Virus record (IMG/VR): IMGVR_UViG_3300034200_001896 | Coordinates: 21,764 to 85,763 of that record | Source of the DNA: a virus | Direction: 5' to 3' (one strand) | Length of the DNA stretch: 64,000 bases | Shown: positions 5,819 to 46,592 of the stretch, in pieces | Layout of the letters: each line of letters opens with the position of its first letter | Numbering within the stretch: the first letter of the stretch is position 1 | The notes under the pieces: model-generated | Databases searched by the model: none | Seen by the model: the letters and a program-made list of their open reading frames with translations, nothing else | Told to the model about the DNA's origin: nothing | Position numbers and translations under genes: made by a program

Positions 5819-6814
5819 ATGATTGATTACGCTGATGTTATTGTTGACTTGGCTTATGGTGATTCCGGTAAGGGAAAAGTAACGCACTTACTTAGTAAGA
5901 GTGGTGAATATACACATTGTATTAGGTACAATGGGTCGAATAATGCAGGCCATACAATCTATCATGAGGGTAAAAAGATTGTAACACATTCAATTCCTAC
6001 AGGGGTTGTGCATGGTGTCAAGTCTATTATTGGCCCCGGTTGTGTAATGAATGTTAAGCAATTCTTTGATGAACTTAAGGAGTTGCAAGATGCCGGTATT
6101 AACACTGACGGTCTTGTATATATTGCAAAGAACGTTCATATCATCACAGAAGAGCACTTGCAAGAAGATAGACAAGATGCTAAGATAGGTACAACGAAGC
6201 GAGGCAACGGTCCAGCATATCGTGATAAGTACGCTAGGAAAGGAATTCGCGCAGAACAGATTCCAGAATTACAAAACTATTTAATAGACATATATGAAGA
6301 GCTTCATAGTGACAATACAAGATGTCGCATCCTTTTTGAAGGGGCTCAAGGATTTGGTTTGGATATCGACTTTGGTGATTATCCTTATTGCACTAGCTCC
6401 ACATGCACAGTTGGCGCTGCTGTTGCTAACGGCGTTCCTCCAAGCAAAATTAGGAATGTATGGGGAATAACTAAAGTATATGAGACATATGTTGGTGGTA
6501 AAAAGTTTGAACCTGATGAACCTATATTTAAACATATTCGTGAACTTGGTGGTGAATATGGTGCCACAACTGGTCGTCCTCGTCAATGCAATTGGATAAA
6601 TACAGCTCTATTACGCAAAGCTGCCAGAATCAACGGTGTTAATCGTGTTGTGTTTAATAAGGCAGATATCCTTCGCAAGATTAATCAATGGAAGGCATAT
6701 GATGTAAATGGTAATCTTATTAACTTCCAAGATGAAGAGCTAATGAAACAATGGATGCAAGAAGTATTACCAGATGTAAAGATTTATTGGAGTGATTCAC
6801 CCGATAAATTGTAA
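5819..6814 (+). CDS. purA: Adenylosuccinate synthetase (short form)
   Basis: GDSGKGK, NAGHT, IGTTKRGNGPAY, FEGAQG..LDIDFGDYPY, EYGATTGRPR, NKAD motifs. Confidence 0.95.
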   Translation: MIDYADVIVDLAYGDSGKGKVTHLLSKSGEYTHCIRYNGSNNAGHTIYHEGKKIVTHSIPTGVVHGVKSIIGPGCVMNVKQFFDELKELQDAGINTDGLVYIAKNVHIITEEHLQEDRQDAKIGTTKRGNGPAYRDKYARKGIRAEQIPELQNYLIDIYEELHSDNTRCRILFEGAQGFGLDIDFGDYPYCTSSTCTVGAAVANGVPPSKIRNVWGITKVYETYVGGKKFEPDEPIFKHIRELGGEYGATTGRPRQCNWINTALLRKAARINGVNRVVFNKADILRKINQWKAYDVNGNLINFQDEELMKQWMQEVLPDVKIYWSDSPDKL

Positions 6815-15761: not shown

Positions 15762-16958
15762 ATGGCTAACGAGACTGAGCAGTTCGACCTTGACCGTTAT
15801 ATCTACAATCTCTTGCAGAACGAGCCGTTCTTTGCAGAGATTTCCCGCCATGTTGAGAAACGTTCCAGCACCGCAATCCCTACCGCTGGTGTGCGTATCA
15901 CCAAGGAGGGACAGTTTGAAATGATGTATAACCCTGCCTTCTTCCAGAAGCTTACCCGTGAGCAGCGGGCAGGTGTTATCAAGCATGAGTTTTATCATTT
16001 GGTTTTCGGTCACGTCACTGACCGTATGCCTGATGGTAAGATGTCTAAGAAGTGGAATATTGCAACTGACCTTGCAATCAATAGTCATATCAAGGATGAA
16101 CTGCCCTCAATGGCTTGCATCCCCGGTGTTGGTCCCTTCAAGGATTTGCCGTTGTTTGAATCGTCTGAGTGGTATTATAACAATCTGCCAAAGCAAGACG
16201 AAAAGAGCGGCAAGGGATTGGGTGAGGGTTCTCCTGATGGTGGTGGTGAGGGTGAATCTGATTCCTTCGACGACCATTCCCAGTGGGGTGAGAACGCAGA
16301 GAACCTTGACCCCGGATTGCGTGAACTCGCCAAGGAACGTCTGCGTGAAATGATGCGAAGCGCAGCAGAGGAGGCCAACAAATCCTCTAATGGTTGGGGT
16401 TCTGTCACTCATAATATCCGCAAGGAGATTATGGACCGTATCTCTGGCAAGATTGATTGGCGTGCGGTGCTGCGCTACTTCATCAAGACCTCTCAGCGTT
16501 CTGCAAAGACTAGCACGGTTAAGCGTATCAACAAGCGTTACGCTTACATCCATCCCGGTCAGAAGGTGCAGCGTCATGCTAAGATTGCCATTAGCATTGA
16601 CCAGAGCGGTTCTGTCTCGGATGAAATGCTGGAAGCTTTCTTCTCTGAACTAAACAACCTTGCAAAGATTGCCACGTTTACTGTGGTACCCTTTGATACG
16701 GAGGTTGATGATAACCTTGTTTATGTTTGGAAGAAGGGAATGTCTCGCAGGAAGGAACGTGTTAAGTATGGCGGAACTGACTTTGACGCTCCAACCAAGT
16801 ATGTTAATGATAAGGGGTTCGATGGACATATAGTGCTTACAGATATGCAGGCACCAAAGCCTATCACTAGCAAGTGCCAGCGTATGTGGATGACTACTAA
16901 AGATTGTATGTCGTCGGCCCCTTTTAAGACTCATGAGCGGGTAATCCCTGTTGAATAA
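15762..16958 (+). CDS. Putative metallopeptidase plus VWA domain protein (DUF2201-like), MoxR partner
   Basis: IPTAGV, HEFYH (HExxH), WNIATDLAIN, MIDAS DQSGS, GGTDF, LTD. Confidence 0.85.
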   Translation: MANETEQFDLDRYIYNLLQNEPFFAEISRHVEKRSSTAIPTAGVRITKEGQFEMMYNPAFFQKLTREQRAGVIKHEFYHLVFGHVTDRMPDGKMSKKWNIATDLAINSHIKDELPSMACIPGVGPFKDLPLFESSEWYYNNLPKQDEKSGKGLGEGSPDGGGEGESDSFDDHSQWGENAENLDPGLRELAKERLREMMRSAAEEANKSSNGWGSVTHNIRKEIMDRISGKIDWRAVLRYFIKTSQRSAKTSTVKRINKRYAYIHPGQKVQRHAKIAISIDQSGSVSDEMLEAFFSELNNLAKIATFTVVPFDTEVDDNLVYVWKKGMSRRKERVKYGGTDFDAPTKYVNDKGFDGHIVLTDMQAPKPITSKCQRMWMTTKDCMSSAPFKTHERVIPVE

Positions 16959-20286: not shown

Positions 20287-20670
20287 ATGAATAAACGTAA
20301 AACTCCAATAATTGGAGAATATGAAATTAGAAATTGCAGCAAACATGGTGAGGTTCGCTATGTGAAAGAATCTAGTGGCTACTGGCGTTGTACGAAATGC
20401 AGAAATGCAAATGTTAGCAATCGTAGAGACAAATTGAAGTTAATGGCAATTGAATATAAAGGCGGGGAATGTCAGAAATGCGGATATAATAAATGTAATA
20501 GAGCATTAGCATTTCATCATCTAGACCCAACACAAAAAGATTTTGGTTTAGCAAAAAGCGGATTAACAAGAAGTTGGGAAAAGATGAAAGAAGAACTTGA
20601 CAAGTGCATATTGGTATGTCATAATTGTCACGCAGAAATACATGATGAAGAACATATAAGAAGTTATTAG
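20287..20670 (+). CDS. HNH endonuclease inserted between tRNA genes
   Basis: KGGECQKCGY...FHHLDP...ELDKCILVCHNCHAEIH. Confidence 0.85.
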   Translation: MNKRKTPIIGEYEIRNCSKHGEVRYVKESSGYWRCTKCRNANVSNRRDKLKLMAIEYKGGECQKCGYNKCNRALAFHHLDPTQKDFGLAKSGLTRSWEKMKEELDKCILVCHNCHAEIHDEEHIRSY

Positions 20671-21605: not shown

Positions 21606-21809
21606 ATGACAACAATAAATGTTGGTGATTTGCTGCGTACTAATAGTTGGTTTGGTGTTGTGATGCGTATAGATGAAGGAAATAATTACGAAGAAACTGC
21701 ATATATGGTTCACTGGTTCTTCCCTGACAATAGAAATCCTATTAGTATGATAAACGGTTATAATGCATTAAAGTATAGAATTAATGTATTGACAATACTT
21801 GGAAAGTAG
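21606..21809 (+). CDS. KOW/Tudor-like paralogue
   Basis: INVGDLL...FGVV...YMVHWF. Confidence 0.65.
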   Translation: MTTINVGDLLRTNSWFGVVMRIDEGNNYEETAYMVHWFFPDNRNPISMINGYNALKYRINVLTILGK

Positions 21810-35523: not shown

Positions 35524-35586
35524 TTATTTTAGATTGATACCTAGGTAAAACTCATGTATGATGGCAAGACGACTGGAGATTTAAGT

Positions 35587-36111
35587 ATGAAAGTTCTTGC
35601 GCTGTCTGCTAATTATGAGCCTCTTGGTGTTGTCTCTTGGGAACGGGCTATTACGCTTGTTTATTCAGATAAAGTTTCTGTAGTTGAAGAATATGATTGT
35701 TTTGTGCGTTCTCCGTCAGTTCAAGTTAAAATTCCTGCTGTTGTTGTTTTTAAAAAATCGTTTATAGGTAATAAACGTAATTCTGTTAGATTTTCTCGTA
35801 AGAATGTTTGGATTCGTGATGAGGGAAAGTGCCAATATTGTCATTTGCATGTTTCTCTTTCTACTTTCACTATTGACCACGTTATTCCAAAAACTCTCGG
35901 TGGAAAAACCGTTTGGGATAATGTAGTTGTATGCTGCTATTCTTGTAATCAAAAAAAGGGCGATAAAAGTTTGAAAGAAGCCGGATTTAAACTATTTAAA
36001 GTACCACGGAAGCCATTTAAGTTACCGTATCTACAAGAAATAACAGATGGACAATACAACTTGGAAAAAAATATTCCCCAAGAGTGGAAATTCTATCTAG
36101 AAAGATTTTAA
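35587..36111 (+). CDS. HNH endonuclease (McrA-like)
   Basis: VLAL.ANYEPL, RDEGKCQYC, TIDHVIP..LGG...WDNVV.CC..CN..KG. Confidence 0.9.
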   Translation: MKVLALSANYEPLGVVSWERAITLVYSDKVSVVEEYDCFVRSPSVQVKIPAVVVFKKSFIGNKRNSVRFSRKNVWIRDEGKCQYCHLHVSLSTFTIDHVIPKTLGGKTVWDNVVVCCYSCNQKKGDKSLKEAGFKLFKVPRKPFKLPYLQEITDGQYNLEKNIPQEWKFYLERF

Positions 36112-43634: not shown

Positions 43635-43715
43635 GGGCGAGTAGGAGAATTGGTAAATCTAGCGGACTCAAAATCCGCCGCGCAAGCACTGTCGGTTCGA
43701 TTCCGACCTCGCCTA
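43635..43715 (+). tRNA. tRNA-Leu(CAA)
   Basis: GGGCGAG/CTCGCCT; GCGGA-CT-CAA-AA-TCCGC; variable arm. Confidence 0.9.
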
Positions 43716-43718
43716 TTT

Positions 43719-43790
43719 GCAGGAATAGCTCAGTGGTAGAGCATCACGTTGCCAACGTGAGGGTCGTGGGTTCAAATCCCACTTTCTGCT
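43719..43790 (+). tRNA. tRNA-Gly(GCC)
   Basis: GCAGGAA/TTTCTGC; TCACG-TT-GCC-AA-CGTGA. Confidence 0.9.
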
Positions 43791-43791
43791 T

Positions 43792-44137
43792 GTTAGCGGT
43801 AGGTAGTAGGCTCAGAAGTAGCCATCCGAAAGGACATGGATAGTAATATCTGTGCTTTAATGAGTGAGACAAAATCCTTTACTAGTGATATAATTCCGTT
43901 AACAGCGGGGAGCGATGCGATGTTCTGCCCGAAGAAAGCACAACGAAACCTGATGTCAGTTGTGTGGACAAACCGCTGCTAGGTAAACTCCAATATATCT
44001 TAATGTACTAGGAGGTTGGGTAATAGGAAAGTCAGATTTACTGATGGGACAGAAGCACGCACAAGATATAATCATTGAAAAGATTATATTGTTTGTTTCC
44101 TCCCGCTCTTTGGTGTAGTAACACACCTACTGTTAAC
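43792..44137 (+). ncRNA. Large structured ncRNA with a split 23S rRNA H43/H44-like core (possibly GOLLD-related)
   Basis: Terminal 13-bp helix GTTAGCGGTAGGT/ACCTACTGTTAAC; GTAGGCTCAGAAGTAGCCATC, TTTAATGAGTG, GGTGTAGTAACACAC; no credible ORF. Confidence 0.7.
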
Positions 44138-44158
44138 AGTTTTTCGAAAGGGCATATA

Positions 44159-44759
44159 ATGGCTAAGAAAAAAGAAACCTATTGGAATTATAGAATTTAT
44201 GCTAAAGAATGCATTAGTAATTCAGGAACCAATTATATTGAATATGGTATAACTGAAGTATATTATAAAGGAGATAAAATTGAAGGTTATATAGCTGATT
44301 TTATGACTCCATGGGGCGAAACTGAAAAAGATTTAAAATTAAATTTTGATATGATGAAGAAAGCTTTTGAATATCCAGTATTAACTATTGATGATTTAGA
44401 ACCAAAGAAAAAATCTAAAAAAATAAAAAAGAAGAAAGCTGGAAAGAAAAATGCGAAAAACTAGCGTTAAAGATTGGAATTATAGAATATTTAAATCTGG
44501 TGATTTTTTTGGAATAGTTGAGGTTTATTACGATGCTTCTGGCAATCCTGTTGGTTATAGTGACTATAATTATCCATTTGGCTACTCGGAACAAGAATTA
44601 AAACTTGATATTTCCAATATGTTAAAGGCGTGTAGACAACCTACCTTAACTCCAGAAGACTTTGAAAAAAAGTCTGTACGCAAAAATAAAATTGTAGTAC
44701 CATCAGTTAAGAATCCACCAAGTAAAGAAGCATTAATGAGGGGAAATAATAATGTCTAA
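44159..44759 (+). CDS. Two tandem paralogues (44159-44464, 44451-44759), WNYRI...EVYY family
   Basis: Both share WNYRI, GI.EVYY, P.G..E..LK, M.KA...P.LT. Confidence 0.65.
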
Positions 44760-46067: not shown

Positions 46068-46592
46068 TTATTGTTTCCAATTACCATCTTTATTATTGAA
46101 ATGTTCTTCTGAATGGCAAGTTGGACAAAGAACTTCTAAATTTTCTATAGTATTATTTTCTCTATTTCTATCTTTGTGATGTACGACTAATACTTCTGGA
46201 ATTTTAGAATAATCACATCTTTCACAAATCTTTTGTTTGTTTCTAAAAGCTATATCTCTATATACACGCCCAGCATTCGTATAATGTGGTGGTTGAATTT
46301 GTTTTATCCCACCAATTCTCTGAGCTATGTCTTTGTGTTCTCTACAGCAAAAAAATAAACCGCTTCTTGAATTCTTTTTTTTAGATTCACTTAAATAAAA
46401 CATTTCTTTACAATAAGCGCATTCAACATTTGGCGTGTTTATTAAAGCGAATTTTGCTATTCTTTGTTTTTTTATTGCTTCACCTGTACATTTTTTGGTA
46501 CAATACTTAGCGTTGCCTCTATTTACTTCTGATGGTTTTGCTTCAAAGGGTTGTTCGCAGTTTAAACAATTTTTAGTTATTGTAGTAATCAT
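46068..46592 (-). CDS. HNH endonuclease with N-terminal zinc fingers
   Basis: CERC...LVVHHKDRNRENN..ENLEVLCPTCH..EH; GAGG RBS. Confidence 0.85.
   Translation of the reverse strand: MITTITKNCLNCEQPFEAKPSEVNRGNAKYCTKKCTGEAIKKQRIAKFALINTPNVECAYCKEMFYLSESKKKNSRSGLFFCCREHKDIAQRIGGIKQIQPPHYTNAGRVYRDIAFRNKQKICERCDYSKIPEVLVVHHKDRNRENNTIENLEVLCPTCHSEEHFNNKDGNWKQ

Follow-up and report, generated by a model that had tools for sequence, protein, structure and literature searches.

An rRNA-like RNA gene in a phage tRNA cluster

The stretch of DNA analyzed here, hereafter the window, comprises 64,000 nucleotides (positions 21,764 to 85,763) of IMG/VR virus record IMGVR_UViG_3300034200_001896. The record is 85.8 kb long and estimated to be 34% complete, and the window is AT-rich. 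Genes recognized by match include those for a virion structural or tail-spike-like protein, a head maturation protease, an endolysin, PhoH, a PurZ-like enzyme, several HNH endonucleases, and sugar-modifying enzymes. ARAGORN finds two tRNA clusters, the second of which (tRNA-Thr, Ile, Leu, and Gly, + strand) lies directly upstream of the subject of this report, an element of 348 nt at 43791-44138 (+). The element contains no credible open reading frame (ORF), and its G+C content is about 43%, against about 30% in the flanks. It is the gene of a non-coding RNA and lies inside the tRNA cluster of a large, uncultured phage from lake water. As judged by the comparisons described below, the element belongs, as a divergent and expanded member, to a large family of phage RNAs. 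What the members of this family conserve is a core that copies the GTPase-associated center (GAC) of 23S rRNA and closes on itself: a private closing helix replaces the tip of helix 42 (H42), and helices 43 and 44 (H43 and H44) follow, with the nucleotides behind the tertiary fold included.

A preliminary description of the window had proposed that the element starts right after tRNA-Gly, that its ends form a 13-bp helix, and that these ends rebuild the L11-binding domain of 23S rRNA around two inserts of about 30 and 240 nt. All of these points hold up. The gene for tRNA-Gly(GCC), at 43719-43790 (+), was found by ARAGORN and scores 74.1 bits against the Rfam tRNA model; it has no encoded CCA, and its discriminator base abuts the element, whose start falls at 43791/43792. 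The closing helix, P1, pairs 43791-43804 with 44125-44138 and has 14 pairs, or 13 without the outer U-A. It is the outer helix of the minimum free energy (MFE) fold, is supported by the model alignment as well as the sequence, and stands in for the tip of H42; its 3' strand is followed by TTTTT at 44140-44144. The MFE fold has z = -2.64, with 1 of 100 shuffles folding equally well.

Within P1, the parts of the rRNA domain follow one another on the + strand. Positions are named by E. coli 23S rRNA numbering, anchored on A1067 and A1095. The H43 copy (about 1058-1079) occupies 43805-43826 and includes the H43-like stretch GTAGGCTCAGAAGTAGCCATC at 43806-43826. Its stem pairs GGC at 43809-43811 with GCC at 43821-43823, as read from the sequence and the model alignment, and its loop, UCAGAAGUA, places A1067 at 43814, G1071 at 43818, and U1072 at 43819, with a C at 1066. 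The smaller insert, measured at 29 nt (43827-43855, with a boundary ambiguous by 1 nt), lies between C1079 and 1080, and in the MFE fold it gives a mini-stem capped by GAAA and a hairpin of 8 bp (43835-43854) whose loop is GUAA. Next comes TTTAATGAGTG at 43856-43866, of which 43856-43865 comprises a junction UU, a turn UAAU (the equivalent of 1082-1086, one nucleotide short and of the U type), and GAGU. The GAGU is the 5' strand of lower H44 and includes G1087 and A1088; a variant, TAATGAGT, is found in several family members.

The larger insert, 243 nt at 43866-44108, enters at the 1090/1091 junction of H44. It is closed by a helix of GAG (43866-43868) with CUC (44106-44108), and a UUU linker at 44109-44111 joins this helix to the GGU of the H44 top. 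The three linker positions are U in 67, 69, and 65 of 69 unique full-length family members. The sequence GGT-GTAGTA-ACACAC at 44112-44126 completes the domain. Its first part, GGU-GUAGUA-ACAC at 44112-44124, supplies the H44 top and the 3' strand of lower H44 by both sequence and model alignment, with U1092-A1099 at 44114 and 44121, the loop 1093-1098 at 44115-44120, and A1095 at 44117. The base of H43 (1057-1058 with 1080-1081), where the 29-nt insert sits, has non-standard pairs in the model alignment. A43805-U43856 is a possible pair there, and the MFE fold instead puts C1079 into the GAAA mini-hairpin; the insert may or may not disturb the H43 base.

A family of GAC-copy RNAs defined by covariation

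Viral contigs were searched with an 18-nt H43-type pattern having two free positions. The pattern matched at least 118 viral loci, and among the matches listed about 109 of 118 had the family 5' context and were not rRNA. This shared 5' context reads GGA-NN-GU-N, the H43 hairpin, AUC-NN-UUAAAGAGU, and then variable sequence, and it often comes straight after a tRNA. The shared 3' half begins with a strand able to pair with the three bases that follow GAGU; UUU, GGY-GUARNA-RCA-CAY, and the complement of the 5' flank come next. The exact 21-mer of the window had no match in the viral contigs, its 18-mer had one chance match, and blastn of the element against a set of 50,697 phage records gave matches to the tRNA only.

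We built a structure alignment of 37 members, each at most 235 nt long, wrote the structure on the alignment, and counted pairs. Members were selected in part by P1 pairing and by the two pairs that close the H44 top, and the H43 hairpin was set by the search pattern. Paired cells make up 95.8% of the alignment, against 68.6% in shuffles (0 of 500 reach the observed value) and 35-53% with partners slid. All nine of nine P1 pairs changed on both sides, P1 pairing being partly a selection criterion. Covariation is also strong in pairs free of selection: 1057-1081 is AU in 27 and CG in 8; 1058-1080 is GC in 15, UA in 15, AU in 5, and CG in 1; 1082-1086 is UA in 17 and CG in 14; and the first pair of the insert helix is AU in 15, GC in 15, and UA in 7. 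For the 69 unique full-length members, this last pair is GC in 34, AU in 24, and UA in 11. That this is a structured, conserved phage RNA of a tRNA cluster is supported by the family covariation and by the same-strand tRNA neighbors reported below.

A covariance model, R1, was made from the 37-member alignment, with the window element outside the seed. R1 matches the window at 43794-44134 (+) over model positions 1-169 of 169, with 48.2 bits and E = 5.4e-11 in the 64-kb window, where the next-best matches have E = 2.7 and 3.2. Because a model built without the window element matches it at full length with this E-value, the likeness is far beyond chance. Applied to 80 loci with full flanks, R1 gave 74 full-length matches in 73 loci, with lengths from 111 to 405 nt. 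By these lengths all of the matches carry inserts and none is plain rRNA. R1 itself is blind to the difference between rRNA and copy, and genuine 23S sequences score 33-54 bits. One locus, L053, has two GAC-copy RNAs 78 nt apart (1486-1725 and 1803-2071, +), with different inserts, each located after a tRNA.

A tertiary contact retained in the copies

In the rRNA domain, position 1072 forms a base triple with the pair 1092-1099. Among the 69 unique full-length members, 1072/1092/1099 are C/C/G in 57, U/U/A in 11, and C/U/A in one (L067), an association with Fisher p = 7e-12, not corrected for relatedness. The window triple, U43819 with U44114-A44121, obeys the rule. The "compensatory changes in H44" noted earlier are therefore real, U1072 occurring with U1092-A1099 as in the 11 U-type members and in genuine rRNA, where 23S sequences with U1072 (Patescibacteria, archaea) have U1092-A1099 in 10 of 10. 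A genuine 23S rRNA of the C type, from Paenibacillus, has C1072 with C-G. As a control from the 3' side, metagenomes were searched with a 17-mer for the U-A form of the H44 top only, with 1072 left free. The search returned 75 loci, 13 solid members and 62 chance or weak matches, and U1072 is present in 13 of the 13 solid members.

Where the search pattern left positions free, U1060, A1084, A1085, A1088, the pair G1091-C1100, G1093, U1094, and A1098 are near-invariant. In the H44 loop, which lies outside the pattern, G1093 is kept in 69 of 69 members, U1094 in 68, A1095 in 64, and A1098 in 69. Position 1096 is A in 52 and G in 16, and 1097 is U in 31, C in 29, and A in 8. The reading of these RNAs as putative mimics of the ribosomal domain is supported at the levels of sequence, secondary structure, and tertiary structure.

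The 18-mer of the window H43 at 43809-43826, with C1066 and U1072, is found in ten genuine 23S rRNAs, from Patescibacteria and from DPANN and other archaea. The remaining 8 of its 18 genome matches are chance matches in other DNA. We considered whether this match names Patescibacteria or archaea as the host and read it as coincidence: the loops of the nearest relatives, L255 and L252, differ (GGCCCAG), and the phage's genes for sugars of the lipopolysaccharide type also oppose such a host.

Relation to known RNAs and to rRNA itself

Rfam 15 has no family that matches the element at gathering score or at E <= 10, and none that falls on the GAC-copy RNA in sets of 20, 6, and 5 related loci. The Rfam models for GOLLD, ROOL, and large subunit (LSU) rRNA, the check suggested earlier, gave no match at gathering score, nor at E <= 10 over 43700-44250. 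The preliminary idea that the element might be a short GOLLD variant falls with this result, and the probability of a GOLLD or ROOL variant is practically nil; what the RNAs share is a habitat, phage genomes beside tRNA genes. Like the GAC-copy RNA, GOLLD and ROOL are structured non-coding phage RNAs next to tRNA genes, but they match it in neither sequence nor structure. ROOL does occur as a separate gene at L025:2416-2999 (-) and L080:562-1159 (-), scoring 328 and 337.6 bits, in both cases in the same tRNA cluster and on the same strand as a GAC-copy RNA 0.2-0.9 kb away. Because both lie in one cluster in these two loci, ROOL and GAC-copy RNAs can travel together. Full-text searches found no description of such an RNA, subscription journals being outside their coverage. 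The family is absent from Rfam 15 and the searchable literature and seems undescribed, and for this reason phage annotation leaves these loci blank.

The closest known counterpart is the 23S GAC itself (E. coli 1051-1108, the uL11 and thiostrepton site). Outside the inserts, the register is equal nucleotide for nucleotide, and both have the H43 stem and loop, the 1082-1086 turn, GAGU, the H44 loop GUARNA, and the triple rule for 1072 and 1092-1099. Unlike the rRNA domain, the phage copy stands free in a tRNA cluster, replaces H42 with an arbitrary, covarying closing helix, and has H44 split at 1090/1091 (by 243 nt in the window), with the further 29-nt hairpin at 1079/1080 here. The element is not a genuine LSU rRNA gene or fragment, given that no LSU model matches it and that its flanks are a tRNA gene and a small ORF.

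Leaders of ribosomal-protein mRNAs, such as those of L10(L12)4 and L1, also imitate rRNA binding sites; they act in cis, are located ahead of ribosomal-protein genes in cells, and copy few features. The phage RNA resembles them as an off-ribosome RNA imitating an rRNA protein site, but it is encoded in trans and copies a whole tertiary domain. A ribosomal-protein leader was rejected as an identity for the element: the ORFs downstream match phrog_21321 and are not ribosomal proteins, and no uL11 or bL12 domain is present in the record. Other phages do encode copies from the stalk base and GTPase region, as proteins rather than RNA. PMC6375957 describes phage bL12 domains that keep the residues for contact with uL11 and with EF-G and EF-Tu, and PMC13157829 describes a uL11 encoded by phage PhiMa05. 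A phage RNA that imitates a host RNA also has a precedent, in that pseudo-ToxI of phage PhiTE is reported to imitate an antitoxin repeat and block one Abi toxin (PMC3475682); the GAC copy imitates a ribosomal domain instead.

Inserted domains

The family inserts all leave from a single point, 1090/1091, and differ widely in content. By BLAST they form one class of 12, one of 6, a few small classes, and many singletons. The 243-nt insert of the window had no BLAST relative among the 70 unique members first collected. Later, the same class was found in L255, L252, L258/L274, L153, L201, and L163/L196, making seven unique sequences with the window; L255 and L252 are the nearest relatives, about 95% identical by eye. 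The class motifs are GAC(A/G)AAAUCC just inside the closing helix and AGGUUGGG(G/U)AAU(A/G)GGA, represented in the window by GACAAAAUCC at 43868-43877 and AGGUUGGGUAAUAGGA at about 44013-44028; a local hairpin lies at 44067-44093. A scan of viral contigs for the insert motif gave 72 loci, of which 4 were members.

In the seven-sequence alignment, compensatory changes can be seen by eye in three helices: the closing helix (GAG/CUC, GAA/UUC, AGG/CCU, and GCG/CGC), a long-range helix (GCCC/GGGU and CCCC/GGGG), and the hairpin at 44067-44093 (AUAAUC/GAUUAU and GUAGUC/GACUAC). RNAalifold, run on a MAFFT alignment of the seven, gives a partial consensus only. The insert is not a second rRNA copy, as it has no similarity to about 1.2 kb of 23S sequence around the GAC in ten rRNAs. 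The 243-nt domain is a lineage-specific addition to H44. The 29-nt insert is absent from all six other class members, including L255 and L252. Because these near-identical relatives and the rest of the class lack it, it is a recent gain private to this phage, and a pattern for the junction insert had no match in metagenomes.

In the largest BLAST class (12 members, 11 of them aligned), the insert ends in AGUA-GNRA-G-N-CACCCC-N-UAA-N-U-GGUAAGG. Ten of the 11 carry this AGUA-GNRA module (L005, L011, L022, L030, L051, L077, L080, L086, L097, and L101), and L115 departs from it. We considered the AGUA-GNRA-G motif as a possible sarcin-ricin loop and rejected it, since the pairing partners it would need are not kept, as judged by eye.

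Genomic context, expression, and cultured carriers

Among 45 unique members from loci of at least 2 kb, 34 have tRNA genes on the same strand within 1.5 kb, and none has one on the opposite strand. In 12 members a tRNA is found no more than 30 nt upstream, and in 14 no more than 30 nt downstream. The uniform strand of these neighbors fixes the strand of the RNA and suggests its release by tRNA processing. A scan for promoters gave 7 promoter-like sites against 6.6 expected, and the only terminator-like site found in the terminator scan was the tRNA T-arm.

Four lake-water metatranscriptome runs contain contigs that lie wholly inside the element and match it with 0 differences, the 29-nt insert included. 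These RNA-library contigs cover 43811-44112, 43806-44038, 43811-44063, and 43811-44062. In the four runs, contigs leave 44113-44400 and the 5'-most 15-20 nt of the element uncovered, and neither transcription nor the ends of the RNA can be read from contigs.

R1 also matches cultured phages: Pseudomonas phages pf16 (114.5 bits, a 194-nt RNA lying between the genes for tRNA-Asn and tRNA-Pro) and UNO-G1W1 (113.8 bits), Xanthomonas phage XacN1 (95.5 bits), Aeromonas phage 4_4572 (95.0 bits), and Ralstonia phage RSP15 (71.8 bits). Nothing is annotated under the match in pf16, XacN1, RSP15, or Aeromonas phage 4_4572, and UNO-G1W1 has a small hypothetical ORF on the opposite strand. A match of 39.9 bits over 61 nt in Vibrio phage 2.275.O probably marks a divergent member that is longer than the match and whose H44 loop is atypical. 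A match in Paenibacillus phage Pd_22F was rejected as a family member, being a near-complete 23S gene (L291:393-3032, MZ092003.1; LSU 2617.6 bits). That gene lies in an almost unannotated stretch; either the assembly includes host DNA or the phage carries an rRNA gene.

No recurrent protein neighbor was found in the flanks of 82 family loci, ORFs having been scanned in those of at least 2 kb. Domains of uL11 and bL12 are absent both from the window's record, 34% complete, and from five complete genomes of cultured carriers. Because the carrier genomes examined encode neither protein, any uL11 or bL12 partner would be the host's. Locus L040 has a tmRNA gene (1840-2109, +; 80.6 bits) about 200 nt downstream of its GAC-copy RNA (1485-1636), and Ralstonia phage RSP15 has a weak tmRNA-like match after its copy (L288:1985-2038). 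Only 14 nt separate the GAC-copy RNA of XacN1 (1494-1730) from the end of the preceding ORF260 (L289:830-1480), annotated as a 2'-5' RNA ligase, a family linked with RNA repair.

Possible functions of the GAC copies

The reading we favor, at a probability of roughly 0.45, is that the RNA would serve as a GAC decoy, binding host uL11 off the ribosome. It would be transcribed with the tRNAs and freed by tRNA-processing enzymes, 3' processing of tRNA-Gly freeing its 5' end. The freed RNA would fold like the rRNA domain and act away from the ribosome as an imitation of the GAC. It would most probably bind free or exchangeable host uL11, withholding or redirecting uL11 or other readers of the site, and a possible effect is weaker uL11-dependent stringent-response signaling during infection. 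About 58 nt of the rRNA, taken in isolation, make up a complete site to which uL11 binds with high affinity, and this fragment also binds thiopeptides. Because this small fold is a complete binding site, uL11 is the most probable partner. The H43 motif is also the sequence reported in the literature as an L11-binding RNA (PMC1802607).

Several observations weigh against this interpretation. In the 14 U-type members with a pattern-free H43 loop, positions 1068-1070 vary (UAAAA, UAAGA, UAAUA, UGGGG, and others), and A1067 is G in 2 of the 14, so the factor-facing loop of H43 appears not to be faithfully copied in every member. In the window, the 29-nt insert lies at the H43 base and could weaken the predicted uL11 site of this copy. 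Folded by itself, the 243-nt insert gains no stability over shuffled sequences (z = -0.82). The evidence for expression consists of contigs from libraries in which DNA is possible and in which other parts of the phage are covered too. Finally, most cellular uL11 is on ribosomes, making the stoichiometry of a sponge doubtful.

The strongest rival, although an unlikely one, is a decoy or sponge for agents that attack GAC RNA, such as a Tre23-type toxin of the host or a competitor, a nuclease or methyltransferase directed at H43/H44, or thiopeptides, by which ribosomes would be spared. In its favor, phage tRNA clusters are known sites of counter-measures against RNA-targeting defenses, and the H44 loop is strongly kept despite lying outside the search pattern; the same conservation is equally expected from the fold or from uL11 binding alone. 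To our knowledge, no anti-phage system targets the GAC, and none was found in the literature searched. Tre23 ADP-ribosylates 23S H44 at 1095-1098 and impairs the GTPase activity of EF-G, and thiostrepton, nosiheptide, and micrococcin are H43/H44 binders (PMC8661411). Tre23 is, however, an interbacterial effector of the type VI secretion system rather than a phage defense, and 1096 and 1097, within its target stretch, vary among the phage copies.

Somewhat less probable still is a division of labor in which the GAC copy is a uL11-clamped handle that seals the ends against exonucleases or localizes the RNA, the inserted domain being the effector. The great variety of inserts, in many classes and all from one point, fits such a handle, as do the long motifs kept by the window insert class in seven unique sequences and the at least three helices with compensatory changes by eye. 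The family-wide conservation is nevertheless in the core and not in the inserts, the inserts of short members reach only about 45-60 nt (L019 is 111 nt in all and L026 114 nt), and the window insert alone has no thermodynamic signal.

A factor trap, with or without uL11, which is the idea of the preliminary description, seems improbable. Here the RNA would mimic the docking site of EF-G, EF-Tu, IF2, RF3, RelA, or the elbow of A-site tRNA and perturb host translation or the synthesis of guanosine tetraphosphate (ppGpp). For factors to bind stably, the remainder of the ribosome is needed too, including the bL12 stalk and the sarcin-ricin loop. A copy of that loop was not found, the window insert class has no similarity to the 23S flanks, and bL12 is encoded in 0 of 5 complete cultured carrier genomes. 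That the GAC is a factor-binding site (PMC8661411) and that phages tamper with this region through encoded bL12 domains and uL11 (PMC6375957 and PMC13157829) speak for the trap, but in the unbiased subset no part is less conserved than the H43 loop that faces the factors. Because the stem and junction nucleotides and the triples are most constant while 1068-1070 drift, the evidence leans toward conservation of the fold plus uL11 binding over conservation for factor docking.

Captured host rRNA scrap or a functionless chance look-alike is close to refuted: phage records can hold real rRNA, as Pd_22F does at 2617.6 bits, and R1 does not tell rRNA from copy, but the element has no LSU match, a private closing helix replaces H42, pairs covary as the sequence diverges, the R1 match has E = 5.4e-11, and family members occur in many unrelated contigs as well as in several cultured phages.

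If the mimicry is real, phages copy a whole functional rRNA domain, beyond tRNAs and ribosomal proteins, for use off the ribosome. Such RNAs would represent a novel type of phage non-coding RNA and a novel form of molecular mimicry, at a site shared by the translation GTPases, the stringent-response trigger uL11, and the thiopeptides. More broadly, and as a tentative proposal that we consider doubtful, portable free-standing GAC copies in phage tRNA arrays might form a new class of RNA counter-measure that soaks up uL11, blunting RelA and ppGpp, or absorbs toxins, with lineage-specific H44 domains adding functions. The family also supplies naturally occurring variations on a classic RNA tertiary fold, in which an insertion is tolerated at 1090/1091 and, in the window, also at 1079/1080. 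The R1 matches in cultured Pseudomonas phages pf16 and UNO-G1W1, whose hosts are harmless, make these ideas testable at the bench.

Other features of the window

Directly after the RNA are two ORFs, 44159-44461 and 44451-44756 (+), tandem paralogues of 101 and 102 aa that match phrog_21321, of unknown function. An ORF at 5819-6811 (+) matches phrog_1211 (E = 1e-71), an adenylosuccinate-synthetase-like enzyme of the PurZ type, which hints that the phage may use 2-aminoadenine in place of adenine in its DNA. Genes for HNH homing endonucleases lie at 20287-20667 (+), 46071-46592 (-), 35554-36108 (+), and 15762-16955 (+); one of them separates tRNA-Lys from tRNA-Gln in the first tRNA cluster, and another lies just before tRNA-Ala.

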